The position numbers and the translations under genes are program-made. Source: a virus (taxonomy: Duplodnaviria; Heunggongvirae; Uroviricota; Caudoviricetes). Taken from it: a DNA stretch of 23,706 nt. Positions 1-14,202 of this stretch are shown piece after piece; position 1 is the first letter of the stretch; each line of letters starts with the position of its first letter. The DNA lies in the IMG/VR virus record IMGVR_UViG_2579779009_000002, one strand, 5' to 3'. The notes under the pieces were generated by a model that saw only the letters and a program-made list of their open reading frames with translations, made no database searches and had not been told where the DNA came from.

Positions 1-1044
1 TTAGCTGTTTGCTTCAAGGCTCGTTGCTTTAGTGGAAAGTGTGGCTAATGGATTGAAACGCAGTGCTGTTTCAAGGTGATCAGGGGCAAGATGTGCATAG
101 CGCATAGTCATTTTTATATCGTGGTGGCCCAGGATTTTTTGCAAAGCAAGAATGTTCCCGCCGGACATCATAAAATGTGCTGCGAACGTATGGCGTAGAA
201 CGTGGGTAAGTTGCCCGCGTGGTAGTACGATCGAGGTTCTATCCATCACGGCTAAAAACTGGAAGTAGCAGTCAGTAAATAATTTGAAGCCGTCTAGGGC
301 AACAATTTCCTCATACAGCTCTTTGCTGATCGGAATGCTGCGGTTTTTTTTGCCCTTAGTTCTGACAAATGTGATTCGGTATTTCGTGACCTGAGAACGT
401 GTCAGGTTCACAGCTTCGCGCCAACGTGCTCCGGTGCTCAAGCAGATTTTGACGACAAGAGCGAGCAGGGGGCTTTGGCGTTGACAGTCGAACAGAAGCT
501 CTGTGATTTGTTCATGTGTCAGCCAGGCCATTTCTTTTTCGGCAATGGTGAATTTACGCATGTTCTCCAGTGGATTTGGTGCTGTCCATTCACCGAGTCG
601 GGCTAACTCGCTAAAGACCCCACTCAGATAGCTTTGCTCCAGATTGATAGTTACCGGGCTGGCTCCTTTCTTCCATTTTTCGCTGAAGTAGATTTCACCC
701 GTCAGGCGCTTATCGCGATAGTGCGCGAACATTTTGGATGTTAGATCGGTGGCGAGGGGATTTCCGAGAGCATCGACCATCAGTATCAACTTGTCGTAAA
801 CATGCTCGCCAGCGGTCAGGGATTTGCCGTGCAGTTTGAACCAGAGTTCAACGATATCCTGTAGAGTTCGACGGTCTACCGATTCACCAAGCCAAGGCTT
901 AGCTTCTGCCTCCTCCATCGTGTGACGCTCAAAAGCTAATGCTTCGCCTTTGGTAGCGAACTGTTTACGCACGCGACGCCCGCTGCGTCCGGCGGGGTAA
1001 CATTCGCAAAGCCATTTCCCTGTGGTTAGTTTTCGTACTGCCAT
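1..1044 (-). CDS. int: Tyrosine integrase (P2/186-type site-specific recombinase)
   Basis: ORF-track 399-aa frame; I place the start at the internal ATG (1042-1044) preceded by GGAGGG, giving about 347 aa beginning MAVRKLTTGKW. C-terminus has the tyrosine-recombinase catalytic region (LRHTFAAHFMMSGG...HHDIKMTMRYAHL). Stop codon at 1-3, so attL would lie at or beyond the window edge. Confidence 0.9.
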   Translation of the reverse strand: MAVRKLTTGKWLCECYPAGRSGRRVRKQFATKGEALAFERHTMEEAEAKPWLGESVDRRTLQDIVELWFKLHGKSLTAGEHVYDKLILMVDALGNPLATDLTSKMFAHYRDKRLTGEIYFSEKWKKGASPVTINLEQSYLSGVFSELARLGEWTAPNPLENMRKFTIAEKEMAWLTHEQITELLFDCQRQSPLLALVVKICLSTGARWREAVNLTRSQVTKYRITFVRTKGKKNRSIPISKELYEEIVALDGFKLFTDCYFQFLAVMDRTSIVLPRGQLTHVLRHTFAAHFMMSGGNILALQKILGHHDIKMTMRYAHLAPDHLETALRFNPLATLSTKATSLEANS

Positions 1045-1232
1045 AAAAAATGCCCTCCAGTAGAGAGCATTTTCACTGTATGTATAACCAGTGTCAATGT
1101 ATGAAATCCTACGACCATACATCTCACTGAAGCCATAATTAAGTTGGCTATTCTTTTTGCTATGTGAGCATGTAATTTTTGCGGTTAACCTGCGGCTCAT
1201 TTTTATTTTAGGCGCAGATATAAAAGCAAAAG

Positions 1233-4224: not shown

Positions 4225-5078
4225 GCACCATCCTGAAATGGGCGGGAAATAAAACCGCCATTATGTCCGAACTGAAAAAACACCTTCCTGCTGGCCCGCG
4301 ACTGGTTGAACCTTTCGCGGGTTCCTGTGCTGTGATGATGGAGACGGATTACCCCAGCTATCTGGTTGCGGATATTAATCCTGATTTAATCAACCTCTAT
4401 AAAAAGGTTGCCGCTGATTGCGAGGCGTTTATATCTCGTGCCAGAGCTTTATTTGAGGAAGCAAACAGGGAGGTGGCTTATTACAACATAAGGCAGGAGT
4501 TTAATTACTCCACTGAAATTACTGATTTCATGAAAGCGGTATATTTCCTGTATCTCAATCGTCATGGTTACCGTGGGTTATGTCGCTATAACAAGAGCGG
4601 GCATTTCAACATTCCCTATGGGAATTATAAAAATCCGTATTTCCCTGAAAAAGAAATTCGCAAATTTGCAGAAAAAGCCCAGCGAGCAACGTTTATCTGC
4701 GCCAGCTTTGATGAAACGCTGGCGATGTTGAAGGCGGGGGATGTGGTGTATTGCGATCCGCCTTATTACGGTACGTTTTCCGGCTATCACACTGATGGCT
4801 TCACTGAGGATGACCAGTATCACCTGGCATCCGTTCTTGAACATCGATCATCTGAAGGTCATCCGGTCATTGTTTCTAACAGTGACACATCCCTGATTCG
4901 TTCGCTGTATCGCAATTTCACTCACCACTACATCAAGGCAAAACGCAGCATCGGCGTGTCGGCTGGCGAGAGTAAATCTGCAACAGAAATCATTGCTGTT
5001 TCCGGGGCGCGCTGCTGGGTGGGATTTGATCCTTCGCGTGGCGTAGATAGTTCTGCTGTGTACGAGGTGCGTGTATGA
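4221..5078 (+). CDS. dam: DNA N6-adenine methyltransferase (Dam-like)
   Basis: ATG at 4221 after GGAGG; N-terminal ILKWAGNK...PFAGSCAV (AdoMet binding) and the catalytic DPPY motif ([12 protein letters not shown]); stop overlaps the replication gene start. Confidence 0.85.
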
Positions 5079-7489
5079 GTCATGACGATATGAGCAACTC
5101 TAGCGGCTTTAACGAGGCCGCCGCATCATTTTCATGGAACGGCCCGAAAAAGGCCATTAACCCTTATCTGGACCCGGCGGAAGTTGCGCCGGAGTCTGCA
5201 CTTTCAAACCTGATCACTCTGTATGCTGCCGATAACGAGCAGGAACAACTGCGCCGCGAGGCACTGAGTGAGCAGGTCTGGGAGCGTTATTTCTTTAATG
5301 AATCCCGTGATCCTGTCCAGCGCGAAATGGAGCAGGATAAGCTCATTAGCCGGGCAAAGCTGGCGCATGAGCAGCAGCGTTTTAATCCAGACATGGTCAT
5401 TCTGGCTGACGTCAACGCCCAGCCTTCCCATATCAGCAAGCCGCTGATGCAACGTATTGAATACTTCAGCAGCCTGGGCAGGCCAAAGGCTTATTCCCGC
5501 TATTTGCGTGAGACGATTAAGCCATGTCTGGAACGGCTGGAGCATGTACGCGACAGTCAGCTATCCACTTCTTTTCGCTTTATGGCGAGCCATGAAGGGC
5601 TGGACGGCCTGCTGATCCTGCCTGAAATGAGTCAGGATCAGGTGAAACGCCTGTCCACCCTGGTAGCTGCGCATATGAGCATGTGCCTTGATGCAGCTTG
5701 TGGCGATTTGTATGCCACCGATGACGTTAAGCCAGAAGAAATCCGCAAGACATGGGAAAGGGTGGCAGCAGAAACCCTGCGACTGGATGTCATCCCACCT
5801 GCGTTTGAGCAACTCCGCCGGAAAAGAAACCGCCGTAAACCCGTGCCCTATGAACTCATTCCGGGTTCGCTGGCGCGTATGTTGTGCGCCGACTGGTGGT
5901 ACCGGAAATTATGGAAGATGCGTTGCGAATGGCGGGAAGAGCAGTTGCGCGCTGTCTGCCTGGTCAGCAAAAAAGCATCTCCCTATGTCAGCTATGAAGC
6001 CGTGATGCATAAACGTGAGCAGCGCCGTAAGTCGCTGGAGTTTTTTCGTTCTCATGAACTGGTGAACGAAGACGGCGACACGCTGGATATGGAAGACGTG
6101 GTAAACGCCAGCAGCAGCAACCCTGCACATCGCCGCAATGAGATGATGGCCTGTGTTAAAGGTCTGGAGCTTATCGCGGAAATGCGCGGTGACTGCGCCG
6201 TTTTCTACACCATCACCTGTCCGTCACGTTTCCATTCCACGCTCAATAACGGCAGACCAAACCCAACCTGGACAAATGCGACGGTAAGACAAAGCAGCGA
6301 TTATCTGGTCGGCATGTTTGCTGCATTTCGTAAGGCGATGCACAAAGCCGGGTTGCGCTGGTATGGCGTGCGGGTGGCTGAGCCGCATCATGACGGTACG
6401 GTTCACTGGCACCTGTTGTGTTTCATGCGCAAAAAAGAGCGCCGTGCCATTACAGCATTGTTGTGTAAGTTTGCCATCCGTGAAGACCGCGAGGAACTGG
6501 GTAATAACACTGGTCCACGCTTTAAATCTGAGCTGATAAACCCGCGCAAAGGAACACCGACAAGCTACATCGCGAAATACATTAGTAAGAACATTGACGG
6601 GCGTGGTCTGGCTGGCGAGATCAGCAAGGAAACGGGTAAATCCCTGCGTGATAACGCTGAATACGTTAATGCCTGGGCGTCTCTGCATCGTGTTCAGCAA
6701 TTCCGCTTCTTTGGTATTCCGGGGCGTCAGGCTTACCGTGAACTGCGATTGCTGGCTGGTCAGGCGGCAAGGCAACAGGGCGACAAAAAAGCAGGTGCGC
6801 CGGTACTGGATAACCCGCGCCTTGATGCCATCCTGGCTGCTGCTGATGCTGGTTGTTTTGCCACTTACATCATGAAGCAGGGTGGCGTACTGGTTCCCCG
6901 CAAATATCACCTCATCAGAACTGCTTATGAAATTAACGAAGAGCCGACCGCCTATGGCGATCACGGCATTCGTATTTATGGCATCTGGTCACCCATTGCA
7001 GAGGGCAAGATCTGCACTCATGTAGTGAAGTGGAAAATGGTTCGTAAAGCCGTTGACGTTCAGGAGGCGGTAGCCGACCAGGGCGCTTGCGCCCCTTGGA
7101 CTCGTGGCAATAACTGTCCCCTTGCTGAAAATTTGTACCAACAAGGGAAAGACAAATCAGCTGATGGAGATACCAGAACGGATATCACCCGTATGGATGA
7201 CAAGGAGTTGCACGATTACCTGCACAGTATGAGCAAAAAAGAGCGCCGGGAACTGGCAGCAAGGTTACGCCTGGTGAAACCGAAACGGCGTAAAGACTAC
7301 AAACAGCGAATTACAGACCATCAACGACAGCAGCTCGTCTATGAACTGAAGTCCAGAGGATTTGATGGCAGCGAGAAAGAGGTCGATTTACTCCTTCGCG
7401 GCGGCAGCATTCCGTCAGGAGCAGGCCTGCGTATCTTCTATCGGAACCAGCGTTTGCAGGAAGATGATAAGTGGCGGAACCTGTATTAA
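5075..7489 (+). CDS. A: Rolling-circle replication initiation protein (P2 gpA / 186 RepA family, HUH endonuclease)
   Basis: 804 aa; HUH-type motif [16 protein letters not shown] and active-site tyrosine region [13 protein letters not shown]. In P2 the origin lies inside this gene (established knowledge, not located here). Confidence 0.9.
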
Positions 7490-7558
7490 TTACGCGGATT
7501 AACAATTCGTGCTCTTAATAATACCAGGCATATCAGGCTGATGAACGTAAAAAAACGT

Positions 7559-7601
7559 TTTACATCAGTAAGATTATTATATACTGTAAATATAAACAGT
7601 G
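7559..7601 (+). promoter_or_regulatory. SOS-regulated promoter: -35 TTTACA, -10 TATACT, overlapping LexA box TACTGTAAATATAAACAGTG (7582-7601)
   Basis: CTGT-N8-ACAG with AT-rich centre matches the LexA operator consensus (TACTGTATATATATACAGTA); lies about 45 nt upstream of the antirepressor-like ORF, as for the 186 tum promoter. Confidence 0.7.
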
Positions 7602-7642
7602 GTTATGCATACAGCATTGCTTGTGGTGTTATAGGAGGAAAG

Positions 7643-7831
7643 ATGCAGGACTATTTTTTGGAGTCTTTGAAGCTCCAGCGCATTGATTTTTTTCTTAAGC
7701 TTGTAGCGGCTAGTGAGTGTAGTGATGAAGAGAAGGGGCTGGCTCTGCAGTGGGTTTCTGAATTGACTGATGAACTCATGGCAAAAATCAGAACCCACGA
7801 ATACAACCGCTCAATGGATGTCATCAGCTGA
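7643..7831 (+). CDS. Small protein in the LexA-controlled operon; candidate Tum-like antirepressor
   Basis: ATG at 7643 preceded by AGGAGG (7633-7638); 62 aa. Function inferred only from position downstream of the LexA box and next to a DinI-like gene. Confidence 0.5.
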   Translation: MQDYFLESLKLQRIDFFLKLVAASECSDEEKGLALQWVSELTDELMAKIRTHEYNRSMDVIS

Positions 7832-7841
7832 GGTGACTTTT

Positions 7842-8075
7842 ATGCGCATTGAAATAATGATCGATAAAGAGCAGAAGATTAGCCAGTCTACACTGGACGC
7901 CCTTGAATCCGAGCTTTACCGCAATCTGCGCCCCCTGTATCCCAAAACGGTAATTCGTATCCGCAAAGGTAGCTCTAACGGTGTGGAACTGACCGGACTG
8001 CAACAGGACGAAGAAAGAAAACAAGTGATGAAAATTATGCAGAAGGTGTGGGAAGACGACAGCTGGCTGCATTAA
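7842..8075 (+). CDS. DinI-like protein (SOS-regulated RecA modulator family)
   Basis: 77 aa beginning MRIEIMIDKEQ and ending KVWEDDSWLH, collinear with E. coli DinI (MRIEV...ETWESADDWF) as I recall it; GAGGTG 6 nt upstream of the ATG. Confidence 0.75.
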   Translation: MRIEIMIDKEQKISQSTLDALESELYRNLRPLYPKTVIRIRKGSSNGVELTGLQQDEERKQVMKIMQKVWEDDSWLH

Positions 8076-8345
8076 GAAACGTTGCTGGCGTCTGAACTTG
8101 CTTCTGGCGTCAGCAAGGTTGAACAACGAGCTATGCGAGGCGTTAGTGTCAATTTGTTACCTTAACCACTATATATGCCAGGAAATTAACAGTTCTTAAG
8201 AAACCGCTTGCATGATCGAGCGCATTGAACTTAAGTTTAAGTAACGAAATCAACAGATGATATTGTTGTCTAAATTTTAAAGATAATCTGTTGAGGTTGT
8301 AGGCGTCGGAGTGTAGACTTCCGCGCTATGTGAAAAGGGGGAGTT

Positions 8346-8561
8346 ATGTCAAGCATCGCCGCATTTAGCCTGGGTAACCCAGTTGAACGTCTGGCAAGGG
8401 TTCTTAAAGAGAACCAGGACAAACTCAATCTTAGTAAAGATGGTTTTGTGTCCGTAGACTTGTCTAACAAAAGAGCAATGGATGCCATCAAGGCACAGAT
8501 GGATAAGCTTGAAGGCATCAAAACGAGCACTGTAAAAGAGAAAACTAATAGAACCAGATAA
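8346..8561 (+). CDS. Hypothetical 71-aa hydrophilic protein, first gene of the accessory two-gene cassette
   Basis: ATG at 8346 preceded by AAGGGGGAG; stop overlaps the next gene's start (TAATG); AT-rich; no recognisable motif. Confidence 0.6.
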   Translation: MSSIAAFSLGNPVERLARVLKENQDKLNLSKDGFVSVDLSNKRAMDAIKAQMDKLEGIKTSTVKEKTNRTR

Positions 8562-9403
8562 TGGCAACATTACTTTTAGCAGTGATTTTGGTTAGTGGTT
8601 TTATTTATGTAAACCTATCACTTTCAACAAGATACCGATATAAGCGTTCCAACGGCTGGGACGCTTATTTTTTTGTGGCTGCCTGGGGTATCGTTTTTTT
8701 TCTCCTTGGCGGTTTTTTCACCTTTATTTTGAACGTCAGCGGAGGGTTTCGTTGGCTGGCTAATGCCTTGAATCTAACACCTGACAGTTTTAATGGCATG
8801 TTGTCTTCATCGAAAGACAAACTTCAAAGAATAAATGAAATCAAACAGATAGCATGGGTTATGATTTCAATTGTCCTCGCTGCGATTTCAGGTTTTGGAA
8901 ATAAGTTACGCACATCACGTGGAGATCGTCGCTGGGATGCCTTAGCTAAAGCTGTGGGTAATAACGCTTTCGAATCATTACTTATGGAAGCGTCCGCAAG
9001 ACAGTTTCCGATCATAGCAACTCTGTCGTCTCGCAAAATCTATGTTGGCCTTGTTACTTGTCCGGCGTTAGAAAACGGGCTTTCAGAGCACCTTGAACTT
9101 CTCCCGATGTTAAGCGGATATCGGGATAAAGATGATCTAACGATTAGTATCACGACTAACTATCACCAACATTATCTTGATAGTGGTGTGATAAGTGGAA
9201 TGTCTCGGCTTAATATCGAAGATTTCCGTGTGCTCATACCAAAAGATGAGGTTGAAACAATTTCGTTTTTTGATACTGAGACATATAACAAATTTAAAGA
9301 AAATGAAGCCAGGGATAGAAAGAACTGTCGAAAGATTGGTAGTAAAAGTGCATCTTCGCGCAGCAAGCGTGCAGCAGATGCTGAGTCAAATGATCGTGCA
9401 TGA
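8561..9403 (+). CDS. Hypothetical 280-aa inner-membrane protein (three predicted TM helices plus about 165-aa C-terminal soluble domain), second gene of the accessory cassette
   Basis: Hydrophobic stretches ATLLLAVILVSGFIYVNL, YFFVAAWGIVFFLLGGFFTFILNV and IAWVMISIVLAAISGFG; Ser/Lys/Arg-rich C-terminal tail; translationally coupled to the upstream small ORF. Confidence 0.7.
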   Translation: MATLLLAVILVSGFIYVNLSLSTRYRYKRSNGWDAYFFVAAWGIVFFLLGGFFTFILNVSGGFRWLANALNLTPDSFNGMLSSSKDKLQRINEIKQIAWVMISIVLAAISGFGNKLRTSRGDRRWDALAKAVGNNAFESLLMEASARQFPIIATLSSRKIYVGLVTCPALENGLSEHLELLPMLSGYRDKDDLTISITTNYHQHYLDSGVISGMSRLNIEDFRVLIPKDEVETISFFDTETYNKFKENEARDRKNCRKIGSKSASSRSKRAADAESNDRA

Positions 9404-9451
9404 CTATGCTGCATGAGATCGCATGATCGTTTGAGGAGCATTTTTGCTGAG

Positions 9452-9476
9452 GCCCGCCAGAACTGGCGGGCTTTTG
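9452..9476 (+). terminator. Rho-independent terminator candidate downstream of the two-gene cassette
   Basis: GCCCGCCA / TGGCGGGC 8-bp stem with 4-nt loop, followed by TTTTG. Confidence 0.5.
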
Positions 9477-9520
9477 CGTAGATCATGCAACTGCATGAAA
9501 ACCACTACATAAAGCGGGCA

Positions 9521-9539
9521 GGCGTGGCGGGGATACGAG
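9521..9539. other. Candidate cohesive-end (cos) site of a P2/186-type phage
   Basis: GGCGTGGCGGGGATACGAG: the first 13 nt match the 186/P2 cos overhang as I recall it (186 GGCGTGGCGGGGAAAGCAT; P2 GGCGAGGCGGGGAAAGCAC). Position on the cos-proximal side of portal gene Q is as expected. The last 6 nt differ, so this is tentative. Confidence 0.4.
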
Positions 9540-9547
9540 CGCGCGCA

Positions 9548-9570
9548 TTGATTTCAAAAGATGAAATCAA
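9548..9570. promoter_or_regulatory. Perfect 9-bp inverted repeat TTGATTTCA-N5-TGAAATCAA upstream of the 565-aa gene (operator-like)
   Basis: Seen directly in the sequence, about 50-70 bp upstream of ATG 9617; a plausible -35 (TTCAAA) / -10 (TACGAT) pair overlaps it. Confidence 0.35.
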
Positions 9571-9616
9571 GTGGTACGATAAGTAGGATTACTACCAATT
9601 CTCAAAGGGATGTCTC

Positions 9617-11314
9617 ATGCATAGAATTGTTAAAGCTCATCTTGATAACTTCGTGAAAAGTCACGGTATTGAAAATCATCAAGAGGACACGCAGTTCGAG
9701 CTATTTTGTAATAAAGCTTTGCTGTCTTCTCGTATAAGTATGGATTATGAAATTGACGATGTAACAACCGGGGCTGGTGATGATGGCATGGATGGTGTTG
9801 CCATCATAATTGATGAAGAATTGTGTATATCTTCTGAAGATGCTACTTCAATATTTTCCTCATTACGTAAAAATCATGATGTTGATATTGTTTTCATTCA
9901 ATCAAAGCGTAGTGAGTCTTTTGATTTAGGTGATTTTTTAAAGTTTAAAGCTTCCGTTTTTAGATTTATAGAGGATTCTCCTTACTTATGTGTAGATGAA
10001 ATTCAAAAAAATGCAAGGGAAGTTTTTGATGTCATAATAAAAAATGTACCTAAGATAAGAGGTGGGCGACCAACTTTTACTGCTAAATATGTTGCAACTG
10101 GTTTATATAAAAAACCTAAAGAGTTAGAGAATGCTCGGAAGTTATTTGCAAAAGAAATTGACGAGTTGGGATATTTCTGTAATGTTAGCGTTGAGTTTGT
10201 TGATCGTGATGAATTAACACGTACTTGGATTGATACTTATTCAGTTGTCAATGCTGAATTGCCATTATTTAGTAATGCACCACTTCCCAAAATTAATGGT
10301 ATAGAAGAAGCTTATCTTGCTGTCGTTAAAGCAAAGGATTTTGTTGGTAATTTATTGATGACGGACGAGGGGTCTCTCCGTAATCATGTTTTTGTTGAGA
10401 ACGTCCGGGCGTTCTTGGGAATTGATAATCCTGTTAACGCATCGATTGCTGAGACAATTAAAAATAAAGATGCCGCTTCACGATTTCCTGTTTTAAATAA
10501 TGGAATAACAATTGTTAGTCCGGATGTAAAACTTCAAGGGAGTATTTTACATCTAGAAAATTTTCAGATAGTTAATGGCTGTCAGACATCAAATGTGCTT
10601 TACGAATGCCGCGATTCCTTAGATGATACGATGATGGTTAACTTGAAAGTCGTAGAGACATTAAACGAAGATGTTTTTTCAGAATTGGTTCGAGCGACTA
10701 ACAGTCAGACTAAGGTTGATGAGACTCAGTTCTATTCTCTTCGTCCAATAATAAAGAAAGTAGAAGCGTACTTTGATACTTATGAAGGGCAGGATGGTCG
10801 TTTATATTTAGAAAGACGTGAAAGACAATTTATCGGTAGAGATATACCTGCAGTTAGAGTATTTTCAGTTCATATGGCAGCTAAATGTGTAGCAGCTATG
10901 TTCTTCCGTCGGCCAGATCTTTCATATAGATACCCTAAAAAAATGTATGAATTGTTGGCTGAGAAAATATTTTCTAATGATACCAAGGAGATTGTATTTT
11001 ATTCAGCATGTTTAACATTATATAGATTACACCTACTTACTTCTAATGCTGATATTCCACAAAATATCAGGAAGTACAAATGGCATTTAATGGCGGTAGT
11101 TGGTGCTTTAATTGCCGGAAAGGATGTGCCTAATTTTGGCTCTAAGAAAATGGATGCGTATTGTAATAAAATCATCACTGAAATGACAAAGCATGGTGAT
11201 AAAATAAAAGCTACTTTCCAGAAGGCTGTTGATATTGTTTTGTCAATTGATGATATCACTGATGATAGAATGAAAAGGCAAGCTATTTTAGAGGAAATGC
11301 TTGCCAAGATTTAA
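9617..11314 (+). CDS. Large 565-aa accessory protein; candidate AIPR-family abortive-infection protein (tentative)
   Basis: ATG at 9617 with AAAGGGA upstream; very AT-rich (about 30% GC on a hand-counted 60-nt sample, versus about 58% in a late-gene sample). Motifs NNGITIV and QIVNGCQT resemble, from memory, conserved blocks of the AIPR family (PF10592). N-terminal GAGDDGMDGVAIIIDEE...FIQSKRS could be a PD-(D/E)xK-like nuclease signature (speculative). Confidence 0.7.
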   Translation: MHRIVKAHLDNFVKSHGIENHQEDTQFELFCNKALLSSRISMDYEIDDVTTGAGDDGMDGVAIIIDEELCISSEDATSIFSSLRKNHDVDIVFIQSKRSESFDLGDFLKFKASVFRFIEDSPYLCVDEIQKNAREVFDVIIKNVPKIRGGRPTFTAKYVATGLYKKPKELENARKLFAKEIDELGYFCNVSVEFVDRDELTRTWIDTYSVVNAELPLFSNAPLPKINGIEEAYLAVVKAKDFVGNLLMTDEGSLRNHVFVENVRAFLGIDNPVNASIAETIKNKDAASRFPVLNNGITIVSPDVKLQGSILHLENFQIVNGCQTSNVLYECRDSLDDTMMVNLKVVETLNEDVFSELVRATNSQTKVDETQFYSLRPIIKKVEAYFDTYEGQDGRLYLERRERQFIGRDIPAVRVFSVHMAAKCVAAMFFRRPDLSYRYPKKMYELLAEKIFSNDTKEIVFYSACLTLYRLHLLTSNADIPQNIRKYKWHLMAVVGALIAGKDVPNFGSKKMDAYCNKIITEMTKHGDKIKATFQKAVDIVLSIDDITDDRMKRQAILEEMLAKI

Positions 11315-11365
11315 TTATACCTTGACATGTATATTAACGTGATTTTTTAAGTTGAATATCTAAGT

Positions 11366-11399
11366 AAAAAGAGTGCTTTTATTGTTAAGCACTCTTTTT
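11366..11399. terminator. Bidirectional rho-independent terminator between the 565-aa gene (+) and portal gene Q (-)
   Basis: AAAAAGAGTGCTT - loop - AAGCACTCTTTTTT: GC-containing stem flanked by an A-tract on one side and a T-tract on the other, so it can terminate either strand. Confidence 0.6.
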
Positions 11400-11401
11400 T
11401 A

Positions 11402-12436
11402 TTAAGCTAACTCAAGGCTATATGTATTGAATTTAATAATGTCATCTTCTACCCACTCATTAATTTCTTTGATTCTTTCCTGTAAGGGGGTTAATTCGTT
11501 ACGGACGAATACCTTGCTGGCTTTTTCAATATCGCCAAATCCACCAGTGTTTTGTGGAATAATGCCCATCATCTGCGGAGGAACTCGATGTGCTGCCATC
11601 ATGTCATCGCGACTGACATTTTTGATATTCAGAAACTCATCCTTCGCCGCGACTTCTGACAACGGGATGATCTGAAGCCCGTCCTTTTTGCCGTTAGGCG
11701 AGTACATAAACAAATTGCGGAAGTTGCCTGGACCTTTGGCACTTTTCATCGCGTTGCGGAGGTTGTTTACATCTTCCTGGTTTTGCGCGGCGTCGGTCAT
11801 GTACATGATGAAGCCTGCATGACTGCCGTTAATGTAATACTTCCGGCGGAACAGCGTGGCGGACTCGTTGAGCAGGGCTGACGGAATGACAGAAAGATAG
11901 CCGGGCAGGCCGTAGATTTCTTGATTAATATCCGGCTCCATCAGGTGAAAAATGCTGCCTTTCGTGAACTGATACGGCTGCGTGGTCATGCCGTATTGCA
12001 CAAACCAGTAGGTATCCAGGTCTAACCCGCGTCGGGTGTATTTTGCCAGCGCAGGCTCAAGGGCGATAACTTCACCGAATCGGTTCGTGCGTTTCTCCAG
12101 GTAGGCGTTACCAAATACCAGATAGTCCTGCACAAAACGCGAAAAAGCCTGCTGGCTGAGCAGCGGGTGGGGGATGTAGGTACTGGTCAGAATGTTGCAT
12201 TTCACCGCAATTGGTGAACTGTGATGCACGGCGGCGCGGAAGGTGCGCGCCAGTCCGTCAAAGCTTACTGGCGGCTCATACCAGCGATCTGTCTGTAAGC
12301 ATTCCACATAGTCCAGCAGTTCGCGGCGGTCCAGAACAGGAACGGGATCACCGAAGCTGAATGCTTCGGCTGTAGTTTGACTTTTATGCTGGATCTGGTT
12401 CGTCGACGCAGCGCGGTTCTTCTTACTCTTTCCCAT
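11402..12436 (-). CDS. Q: Portal protein (P2 gpQ family)
   Basis: About 344 aa, the length of P2 gpQ, in the position and orientation of P2 Q (leftward, downstream of P, next to cos); ATG at 12434-12436 with GGAGA upstream; start overlaps the terminase stop (TGATG). Confidence 0.9.
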   Translation of the reverse strand: MGKSKKNRAASTNQIQHKSQTTAEAFSFGDPVPVLDRRELLDYVECLQTDRWYEPPVSFDGLARTFRAAVHHSSPIAVKCNILTSTYIPHPLLSQQAFSRFVQDYLVFGNAYLEKRTNRFGEVIALEPALAKYTRRGLDLDTYWFVQYGMTTQPYQFTKGSIFHLMEPDINQEIYGLPGYLSVIPSALLNESATLFRRKYYINGSHAGFIMYMTDAAQNQEDVNNLRNAMKSAKGPGNFRNLFMYSPNGKKDGLQIIPLSEVAAKDEFLNIKNVSRDDMMAAHRVPPQMMGIIPQNTGGFGDIEKASKVFVRNELTPLQERIKEINEWVEDDIIKFNTYSLELA

Positions 12437-14202
12437 CAAAAAATCTCCACAATATTACTGGTATTGGCGGACTCGCCCTGCAGTGGTTCGTTAAACAGTG
12501 CGTGCATTGTTGCCCAGGCCAGATCGGCGTGGCTGGCTTCTTCGCTGCGGCTGGCTTCATAGGTTGGGCGGTTGCCACTGGCGGTGGTTGCGCGACGGAT
12601 TGCCATGAATGACTGCGCAATGTCGGTGTGCCCGGCGTCAAACTCCAGACGGCGGTGGCTGATAATGTCGTAGGCCTTGAGTACCAGGGCGTTTTTAACG
12701 TTGGGGTTGTAGACAAACTCCCGGACGGCAGGAAAGAACGCTTTCACGTTCTCGTAAACCCCGTGACCAACGCCGGTTGAGTCGATACCGATATAGGTCA
12801 CGTTGTACTGTTCGGTAAGTTTTTTGATGGCGTCAGCCTGGGCGCGGAAGTCCATCCCGCGCCACTGGTGACGCTCAAGAATGCGGAACTTACCACCCGG
12901 CACGGCTGGCGGTGCCACCACCACGCATCCAGCGCTGTCGCCGTTTTGCGTACCTTTTGCCGGGTCATAACCGATCCACACTTCGCGCCAGCCAAACGGG
13001 CGCAGCGCCAGTGCATGAAAGTCGGTCCAGACTTCCCAACTGTCCACCATGCACGCCTGCAGCTCGCTGAGCGGAAACACGGACGCGAGATCGTCCACAA
13101 ACTCGCACATCAGCAGGTTCTGGTATTCGTCCGGGCTGTACTCCATGCGTAGCTGGTCGAGGTCGAACAGGTTACAGCCGCCGCGCACCGCATCTTCCAC
13201 GGTGACTATCTGGCGGTATTGCCCGTCTGCGCACAGCAGGCCGGGGGCCAGATTGCTGTGGGACAGGTCGATGTCCACCTTATCGGCTTTGTTGCGCCCA
13301 CGGTTGAACAGCGCACCGGACCAGAACGGATAAGCACTGTGTGTCAGACTGGATGGCGTGGAAAAATAGGTTTGTCGCCATTTTTTGTGAATAGCCATAC
13401 CGGAAGCCACTTTGCGCAGCTCCTGGAATTTCGGTATCCAGAAATATTCATCCAGATACAGGTTGCCGTGGTAACTCTGGGCCGTGCGGGCATTGGTGCC
13501 GAGGAAGTAAAGCGTGGCCCCGTTAGGAAGCACCATCGGATCGCCTTTCAGCTCCACCTCCACTTCTTTGGCAAAGTCGATGATGTACTGTTTAAAGACG
13601 TGGGCCTGAGCCTTGCTGGCAGAAAGGAAAATCTGGTTACGCCCGGTCAGCAGGGCGTCAATCAGGGCTTCACGGGCAAAGTAAAAGGTCGCGCCGATCT
13701 GGCGTGACTTCAGCAGGTTGCGGATGCGGTTGGTTTTTCCGGCTTCCCACCAGTGGCGCTGGTAGTTGAACATGGAGGAATGGAAGATTTCTTCCAGTTT
13801 CTCAATCTGTTCATCGGTGAAAACATTCTTTTCCGGCTGACGACGTGGGCCTTTGTTGCGGTTGGCAACGTTAGGGTTTAAGTCGGCTTCGTTGCCGCCA
13901 TTGTTAAACTTGCCGATCCGCGCGTGGCGCTCAGACTGGCGTGCCAGCAGGTCAATTTCTTTGAAATCTTTCCCTTCTTTGTGCTCCTTCATAATGAGCT
14001 GGCAGTAGCGTGCGGCGGTGGTGAGCTGCATCTGATCCAGCGGCCCATAGTCACCCCACTTGTCGCGTTTTTTCCAGCTGTGAACGGTTGCAACTTTCTC
14101 GCCCAGCATTTCAGCAATGCGGGCGACGCGGTATCCCTGAAAGTACAGCAGCATGGCCTGCCGACGGGGATCGAGATCTGCGGGTGTCAGTGTGGTGTTC
14201 AT
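12436..14202 (-). CDS. P: Terminase large (ATPase) subunit (P2 gpP family)
   Basis: 588 aa, close to the 590 aa of P2 gpP, upstream of Q on the same strand and divergent from the O operon; the assignment rests on length and gene order. Confidence 0.9.
   Translation of the reverse strand: MNTTLTPADLDPRRQAMLLYFQGYRVARIAEMLGEKVATVHSWKKRDKWGDYGPLDQMQLTTAARYCQLIMKEHKEGKDFKEIDLLARQSERHARIGKFNNGGNEADLNPNVANRNKGPRRQPEKNVFTDEQIEKLEEIFHSSMFNYQRHWWEAGKTNRIRNLLKSRQIGATFYFAREALIDALLTGRNQIFLSASKAQAHVFKQYIIDFAKEVEVELKGDPMVLPNGATLYFLGTNARTAQSYHGNLYLDEYFWIPKFQELRKVASGMAIHKKWRQTYFSTPSSLTHSAYPFWSGALFNRGRNKADKVDIDLSHSNLAPGLLCADGQYRQIVTVEDAVRGGCNLFDLDQLRMEYSPDEYQNLLMCEFVDDLASVFPLSELQACMVDSWEVWTDFHALALRPFGWREVWIGYDPAKGTQNGDSAGCVVVAPPAVPGGKFRILERHQWRGMDFRAQADAIKKLTEQYNVTYIGIDSTGVGHGVYENVKAFFPAVREFVYNPNVKNALVLKAYDIISHRRLEFDAGHTDIAQSFMAIRRATTASGNRPTYEASRSEEASHADLAWATMHALFNEPLQGESANTSNIVEIF

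Follow-up and report, generated by a model that had tools for sequence, protein, structure and literature searches.

The subject of this analysis is a stretch of 23,706 nucleotides (IMG/VR virus record IMGVR_UViG_2579779009_000002, Caudoviricetes; the whole stretch is called the window below) and, within it, the region of about 3.3 kb that separates a DinI-like gene from the portal gene (positions 8076-11401). The window is a prophage of the P2/186/Fels-2 type (Peduoviridae), in which the genes for gpA, DinI, portal, terminase, scaffold and capsid proteins were identified. From left to right, the region contains a two-gene cassette formed by orf71 (8346-8561, plus strand), encoding a small, soluble and basic protein of 71 residues, and orf280 (8561-9403, plus strand), encoding a predicted membrane protein of 280 residues; a candidate cohesive-end (cos) site (9521-9539, plus strand); and a gene for an AbiU/AIPR protein of 565 residues (9617-11314, plus strand), which forms a single-gene cargo. 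A preliminary description of this DNA had taken the region as one accessory island split by the cos site. Comparison with related phages and prophages makes it very probable that the locus is instead a cos-proximal cargo hotspot, reaching from gpA/DinI to the portal gene gpQ, with two independently exchangeable slots arranged around a conserved cos block, the right slot being occupied here by AbiU and the left one by the membrane-protein operon.

The segment 7000-12600 was compared by blastn with Fels-2, three Klebsiella phages, two Escherichia coli prophages and ten loci encoding an identical AIPR protein. The breakpoints revealed by these alignments are sharp and recurrent. The left flank is kept up to position 8073, 8085 or 8149, and similarity is back at 9395-9397; in relatives with another right cargo it ends at 9546-9547 and returns at 11426, 11442 or 11496. 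What had been described as an island consists of three parts: a left cargo slot (8086-9394, plus strand, on the right-end side of the mature genome), which is swapped as a block and whose left edge lies at 8150 in some relatives; a backbone block of 152 bp containing cos (9395-9546, plus strand), which is present in relatives regardless of cargo; and a right cargo slot (9547-11425, plus strand, on the left-end side of the mature genome), with DNA that is variable up to about position 11495 in some relatives. On backbones that are 95-99% identical, the left slot is filled by at least four different cargos, and the right slot shows at least five states. The accessory character of the region is thereby upheld and its unity is not, the two exchangeable slots lying on either side of conserved backbone. 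It was also observed that at the 3' end of the portal gene (11402-11495) the last 8-31 codons travel with the right cargo, the recombination junction lying inside the gene.

Conservation of the cos block extends to 102 phage records, and its full 152 bp are found at 88-95% identity in more than 50 records. In Klebsiella phage 4LV2017 it is the sole DNA shared with the window between DinI and portal (9395-9546, 152 bp, 90.8% identical). Within this block, the 13-nt P2-type cos core GGCGWGGCGGGGA has its only match in the window at 9521-9539, with 0.06 matches expected by chance. The corresponding 19-mer GGCGTGGCGGGGATACGAG, the predicted 5' cohesive end, agrees at 19/19 positions with Fels-2 and with the putative cos of Salmonella phage SEN8, at 15/19 with the annotated cos of 186 and at 14/19 with P2 cosL. 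The hexamer GCGCGC immediately following it is invariant in all five aligned sequences, and the P2/186-type pattern GGCG(A/T)GGCGGGGA... then GCGCGC is found at 9521-9539. Moreover, the records of SEN8 and of Erwinia phage EtG terminate exactly at the equivalent of position 9520. Some 45 bp on the left side of the cut (TGCAACTGCAT.AAAACC...AAGCGGGC) resemble the right end of P2 and the P4 cos region given in Table S2 of Rousset et al., a resemblance consistent with the common P2/P4 cos core cited by these authors (Rousset et al. 2022, PMC9122126). A caveat to this assignment is that the SEN8 cos, at the start of the SEN8 record, is annotated merely as 'putative'. The placement of a candidate cos site between the two units, as first proposed, is nevertheless borne out by its identity with SEN8 and Fels-2 and its uniqueness in the window. 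On the model of the P2 and 186 maps, terminase is predicted to cut at 9520/9521, which would bring the AbiU unit to the portal-proximal (left) end of the linear genome and orf71-orf280 to the opposite end.

The flanks of the region are those recognized at the outset. The DinI-like gene (7842-8075, plus strand; Pfam DinI, 3.1e-23), which is preceded by a small conserved open reading frame (ORF), belongs to the conserved left flank rather than to the cargo, and on this side relatives are 95-99% identical as far as 8073-8149. The right flank is the portal gene (11402-12439, minus strand; Pfam Phage_portal, 1.9e-17), a gpQ homologue related to the portal genes of P2, 186 and Fels-2, among others. 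Between these flanks the G+C (GC) content is 0.380, compared with 0.526 in the remainder of the window, and the segment of lowest GC content among all those of 3,326 bp starts at position 8151, so that the description of the region as AT-rich accessory DNA is sustained. The composition is uneven within the region as well. The left unit has a GC content of 0.42 overall (orf71, 0.42, with 0.444 at third codon positions, GC3; orf280, 0.41 and GC3 0.345), the cos segment 9404-9616 has 0.488, and the AIPR gene has 0.347 with a GC3 of 0.253; the GC3 of the flanking late genes is 0.59-0.69. Low GC content is also seen elsewhere in the window (about 0.35 at 1201-1800), as would be the case if the AT-rich stretch were ordinary conserved phage backbone such as an early or immunity region. 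That reading has practically no probability left and may be regarded as refuted: relatives with flanks 95-99% identical to those of the window have entirely different genes at this position, and in P2 and 186 the distance from cos to the portal gene is only about 190 bp. Comparison with relatives delimits variable from conserved segments, and the genes found here are not constant among them. As a separate observation, a second low-GC stretch (1201-2000, 0.35-0.41) adjoins the integrase gene and is presumed to be the immunity/early region; this location has been reported as another place of minor cargo hotspots in P2 elements (PMC13586616).

Separate acquisition and cooperation of the two units had both been considered in the preliminary description, and the distribution of the cargos bears on this choice. 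The identical AIPR protein is encoded in the cos-portal slot beside four left cargos, namely a ComF-family gene with a 185-residue ORF (on the opposite strand), DUF8087, ASCH together with Mrr_cat, and orf71 with orf280. The left cassette, for its part, is found beside a PIN_12 right slot in E. coli GF130, beside TIR/SEFIR in Klebsiella phage ST15-OXA48phi14.1 and in an Enterobacteriaceae genome, beside a 310-residue ORF of unknown kind, and with an essentially empty right slot in Citrobacter and Photorhabdus; Table S5A of Rousset et al. also lists it with DUF262/DUF1524, SieB and PIN_12 (PMC9122126). Of the 5,426 complete E. coli genomes searched, 1,272 have a match to at least part of the region, 52 contain the left cassette and 7 the AIPR cassette. 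None contains both, which is unremarkable because about 0.3 genomes would be expected under independence. As judged from these sequence comparisons and from the difference in base composition, there is support for the two units assorting independently, and separate acquisition is favoured over cooperation.

The contrary view, in which the two units make up one cooperating system straddling cos (for instance a membrane effector on the left with a nuclease or sensor on the right) that would come together only when the genome is circular or integrated as a prophage, could draw on the adjacency of the units on the same strand in the window and in GCA_902810125.1, on the multi-gene systems of P2-like hotspots that pair membrane proteins with enzymes, such as the AC1 system composed of proteins with two and one transmembrane (TM) helices and a TIR protein (2TM+1TM+TIR), and on the occurrence of the left cassette beside TIR proteins. 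We consider it very improbable. Cargos mix independently on both sides of cos: four unrelated left cargos accompany the identical AIPR protein, and at least four right-slot states, different or empty, accompany the left cassette. Joint occurrence amounts to 0 of the 5,426 complete E. coli genomes. In addition, a strong terminator and the cos block stand between the units, AbiU is a single-gene system both in PADLOC and in Lactococcus (PMC13064643), and the membrane proteins of AC1 are unrelated in sequence to the left cassette.

With two independently filled slots as the preferred description, their exchange can be considered. Flanking direct repeats, which would suggest transposition or site-specific insertion of either cassette, were looked for and not found. 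Because such repeats are absent, homologous recombination is the simplest replacement mechanism, and cargo would most likely be replaced by recombination in the conserved edges, that is, the end of DinI, the cos block and the 3' end of the portal gene.

The two units had further been described as independent transcription units, each with a terminator. Both terminators stand, the first of them as part of the cos block and not of the cargo. This first hairpin (9449-9478, plus strand) resembles an intrinsic terminator, with a T-run, and is predicted to end transcription of the left unit; its folding energy (dG) is -25.3 kcal/mol with a z-score of -4.5, and 0/200 shuffled sequences fold equally well. 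The second one (11361-11404, inverted repeat I2) is a hairpin with z-scores of -5.95 on the plus and -5.98 on the minus strand and would act as a bidirectional terminator, for AbiU on the plus strand and for the portal/terminase operon on the minus strand. Neither was listed by a simple consensus terminator scan; both were detected by comparing their folding with that of shuffled sequences. A third hairpin (8083-8117, plus strand; dG -23.5, z-score -3.6) lies right after DinI, has no T-run and could be a terminator of the early operon or a processing element; both of its arms co-vary in relatives with pairing retained.

For promoters the evidence is less favourable. Upstream of orf71, the sequence TTGCAT-17-TTAAGT (8208-8236, plus strand) may be read as a candidate promoter of orf71-orf280, with low confidence; it does not reach the threshold of the consensus scan, and five copies of the cassette agree in conserving both hexamer regions. 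It is followed by an inverted repeat (8250-8294, plus strand; pair I3 of the repeat search) with arms CAACAG...CTGTTG, possibly an operator or a hairpin in the 5' untranslated region, whose outer arms are invariant in the same number of cassette copies. Some 270 bp upstream of the cassette travel along with it and are conserved about as well as coding DNA. We infer that the left unit is transcribed independently of the early operon. This inference, and with it the independence of the two units in transcription, is weakened by the consensus promoter scan, which picked up no convincing plus-strand promoter in front of either unit; the separate terminators are the part of the original proposal that is retained.

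The protein encoded in the right slot is a member of the AbiU family. It contains an AIPR domain (Pfam, 1.5e-43; 150 bits against a cut-off of 25), its residues 2-563 match positions 3-532 of the 537 of the PADLOC AbiU profile (4.4e-112, 374 bits), and it corresponds to PHROG 1841, labelled 'Abi alpha-like'. Identification as MzaE of the MZA system was considered and rejected, the NCBIfam score being 42.3 bits against an equivalog cut-off of 1050, with only the AIPR core aligned. A sequence search of the PDB gave no match for this protein. In the structure predicted with AlphaFold2 (AF2), the N-terminal part has a PD-(D/E)xK nuclease fold of FokI-like type, the central AIPR region gives weaker structural matches to ParB/sulfiredoxin-like proteins, and the C-terminal domain appears helical. 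In 34 homologues, residues D59, D88, Q95 and K97 and the motifs NNGITIV and QIVNGCQTSN show no variation. We take the D...QxK arrangement to be a variant of the nuclease motif of Mrr-type enzymes. The structural reading of both the AbiU protein and orf280 has to be tempered by the moderate quality of the AF2 models (predicted local distance difference test, pLDDT, 76-78; predicted template modelling score, pTM, 0.43-0.57) and by AIPR residues 359-413, which are unmodelled. AbiU1/AIPR has been interpreted as a domain of the ParB superfamily to which nuclease domains are fused (PMC3632139), and the lactococcal AbiUi protein, also with a FokI-like model, gives modest protection with delayed phage transcription (PMC13064643).

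The window protein shares with lactococcal AbiU and Pfam AIPR (PF10592) a match over the full length of the AbiU profile, the AIPR domain, the FokI-like model and the single-gene layout; it differs in being enterobacterial and prophage-borne and in having no adjacent AbiUii/HEPN gene. No second ORF accompanies AbiU in the right slot, and its neighbours vary among loci. Another counterpart is STM2723.1 of Fels-2, which is homologous to AbiU/AIPR and occupies the corresponding cos-portal slot, where the DNA is 83% identical over 9395-12600 and the cos 19-mer is identical; the left slot of Fels-2 contains STM2726 (243 residues) instead of orf71-orf280. Homologues of the AIPR protein that are 61-67% identical occur in metagenome-assembled genomes of Deltaproteobacteria, Bacteroidales and Thermodesulfobacteriota (P0107, P0115, P0140, P0143 and P0201). 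Conservation at this level across phyla is unusually high and suggests a recent and wide horizontal spread of the gene. Because lactococcal AbiU delays phage transcription (PMC13064643), the window protein probably serves the lysogen as a nuclease with an anti-phage or abortive-infection function. Some observations were made on the other loci with the same AIPR gene. At one of them (L010), window position 12266 is joined to 16800, with loss of the genes from portal through capsid; two others (L015 and L017) have large deletions in structural genes, and in E. coli 30EVA1 (L006) the AIPR gene is annotated as frameshifted. Several hosts thus retain the AIPR gene in decayed prophages.

The left slot is less readily interpreted. 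The stop codon of orf71 and the start codon of orf280 overlap by one base (TAATG). The product of orf71 belongs to phrog_9843 (1.4e-36), and both proteins fall in PHROGs families of unknown function only. The model of orf280 comprises three hydrophobic helices, a cytoplasmic small beta-barrel of Sm/Hfq/WYL-like type and a basic disordered tail; in the predicted C-terminal domain, a helix is followed by the five-stranded, bent beta-sheet of the Sm fold. No Sm1/Sm2 or Hfq motif is detected in this domain at the sequence level (Pfam, E <= 0.01; PDB, E <= 1). Compared with the small beta-barrels of Sm/LSm/Hfq and WYL proteins, the orf280 domain would be tethered to the membrane by its three helices, and it has no sequence match in Pfam or the PDB. 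The conserved motif LSGYRDKD is present in the protein, and the invariant residues of the family (K159, Y161, G163, S185, G186, R188, Y201 and Y205) gather in the Sm-like domain.

A profile search of 1.84 billion representative sequences recovered 2,910 clusters at E <= 1e-3, 2,035 of them at E <= 1e-10; nearly all of the best 150 matches are full-length, with 240-300 residues. The family comprises about 2,900 clusters at 50% identity, with members across Gammaproteobacteria as well as in Alpha- and Betaproteobacteria and Acidobacteria. Eighty loci encoding homologues were retrieved from Enterobacterales, Vibrio, Shewanella, Pseudomonas, Asticcacaulis, Novosphingobium and Acidobacteria. In about 71 of the 75 with an intact ORF, the gene for the homologue is preceded by a small ORF on the same strand, the end of which coincides with the start of that gene or lies no more than about 15 nt away; this holds down to 22% identity. 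The small protein belongs to the orf71 family in 28 cases and to a second family in 43. This second small-partner family (L050-L097; Pseudomonas, Vibrio, Asticcacaulis and others) has about 65-115 residues and the motif (V)VGRGT(L/V)xID. In orf71-orf280, as at these loci, a small first gene is translationally coupled to a larger second one and the two are kept as a pair. Markers of P2-like phages adjoin only the closest members, and a large family with heterogeneous neighbours is as expected for a mobile module. It may be mentioned that orf71 homologues of 56-75 residues (P0059-P0076) are labelled 'multidrug ABC transporter ATPase' in NCBI/UniRef records; given their size and the lack of an ABC domain, this label looks like a wrong annotation that has been propagated.

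Distant relatives of orf280 are also found among the recurrent cargos of the E. coli P2 hotspot. Entries #43 and #57 of Table S5B of Rousset et al., both designated '2 TM', share the SGYRDKD motif and the N-terminal helices, and they occur 93 and 75 times, respectively, with #57 paired with a small protein. They differ by their diverged sequences, by the listing of #43 as a single gene and by the position of the small partner of #57, which is listed second. Neither #43 and #57 nor orf71-orf280 have a match among the systems cloned in that study (Table S2). We also considered that the validated '2TM+1TM+TIR' system of phage AC1 might be the left cassette with a TIR partner, and rejected this identification; the sequences differ and SGYRDKD is absent from Table S2.

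What the left cassette does can be proposed with reserve. The possibility that orf71-orf280 is a toxin-antitoxin-like exclusion or abortive-infection module, combining an oligomerising Sm-like domain that would sense nucleic acids or nucleotides with a helix effector, falls only a little short of even. According to this proposal, the two proteins would be expressed from the prophage, the small one would restrain or sense, and orf280 would oligomerise through its Sm-like domain, leading to membrane damage or to a block of incoming DNA. Several results speak against it. Scans of Pfam, NCBIfam and PADLOC-DB v2 (E <= 0.01 for Pfam and PADLOC) gave no match for orf71 or orf280, and a sequence search of the PDB with the orf280 family (E <= 1) gave none. 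Profile-profile comparison (hhalign) of the orf71 and VVGRGT families aligned the same core with a probability of 9%, which is not significant. Finally, among 147 neighbouring ORFs of distant orf280 homologues, assigned to 162 Pfam families, there were three integrases and no enrichment in phage or defence functions. An Rfam scan of 7400-11700 for RNA families returned only a chance microRNA match (E 0.48) and no retron or toxin-antitoxin RNA, and a literature search on membrane-anchored Sm-like anti-phage proteins brought up only papers on WYL transcription factors.

There is appreciable, if clearly less than even, weight for a cassette that is not a defence system but a superinfection-exclusion protein, another lysogenic-conversion gene ('moron') or a selfish toxin-antitoxin addiction module. 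Its two genes have the overlapping, small-gene-first layout typical of type II toxin-antitoxin pairs; orf280 is a predicted inner-membrane protein expressed from the prophage and has no PADLOC match; distant homologues are placed among housekeeping genes; and the hotspot is known to include non-defence cargo. On the other hand, most of the recognisable cargo in this slot is defensive and the cassette is swapped like defence cassettes, and the conserved residues of the modelled Sm/WYL-like domain (K159, Y161, R188, Y201 and Y205) suggest the sensing of a ligand or nucleic acid over simple membrane exclusion. Defence as the role of orf71-orf280 can be taken one step further: the cassette may represent an undescribed and widespread two-gene family with an anti-phage or abortive-infection role, in which a membrane-anchored Sm/WYL-like ring sensing a nucleic acid or nucleotide would permeabilise the membrane and be restrained by its small partner, and the 'single hotspot' of P2 may at the same time be two slots that recombine independently and are delimited by the cos block. 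This combined proposal is put forward tentatively, as somewhat doubtful.

The locus itself is the defence hotspot already described for P2-like phages, and the finding is in large part known. The cos-proximal region between gpA and gpQ, the old/tin or 'TO' region of P2, was identified as such by Rousset et al., who counted 1,650 arrangements across 18,150 E. coli loci and place P2 old and tin there, as well as partition systems and cytolethal distending toxin as examples of non-defence cargo (PMC9122126). Moura de Sousa et al. (2026) list AbiU among the systems carried by P2 elements and describe very rapid swapping (PMC13586616); in both studies this cos-proximal locus counts as one hotspot (PMC9122126, PMC13586616). 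The proteins of the left cassette, WP_000094764 (orf71) and WP_000212611 (orf280), appear in Table S5A of Rousset et al., and no mention of them was found in the main texts of the papers searched. The region analysed here agrees with the published hotspot in its position between gene A (here plus DinI) and portal Q, beside cos, in its variability, in its short defence cargo and in the presence of AbiU. It differs in that the hotspot as published is single, whereas two slots are swapped independently here around the 152-bp cos block. In P2, only the A-proximal slot is filled (old and tin, on the minus strand), with 186 bp between cos and Q. The right slot is filled in the window, in Fels-2 and in 4LV2017 (by a retron), so that its use characterises only part of the family. 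The resolution into two slots is a refinement rather than a new phenomenon, and the only new lead is the left cassette, a candidate defence system.

The remaining features of the window are those of the phage backbone. An integrase gene (1-1200, minus strand) and the replication gene A (gpA, 5075-7489, plus strand) lie to the left of the region; to its right, the large terminase gene (12436-14202, minus strand) is followed by the scaffold, capsid, small terminase and tail genes. The gene order gpA, DinI, variable cargo and portal is also that of Fels-2 and of the Klebsiella and E. coli relatives. The contig KK736296.1 (assembly GCA_000692395.1) is 100% identical to the window across 13,698 bases. 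At one further locus (L009, 369-1379), an extra gene with a PAPS_reduct domain lies between the Dam-like methylase gene and gpA, a further variable spot in the early operon.

Defence cargo beside cos in P2-like phages having been published, the locus mainly confirms and illustrates this arrangement. The presence of two slots around a cos block that has its own terminator explains how homologous recombination can exchange cargo while packaging is left intact. As for the left cassette, it represents a large family without a Pfam or PADLOC model that recurs in the hotspot, and it offers a cheap and concrete candidate for the discovery of defence systems.

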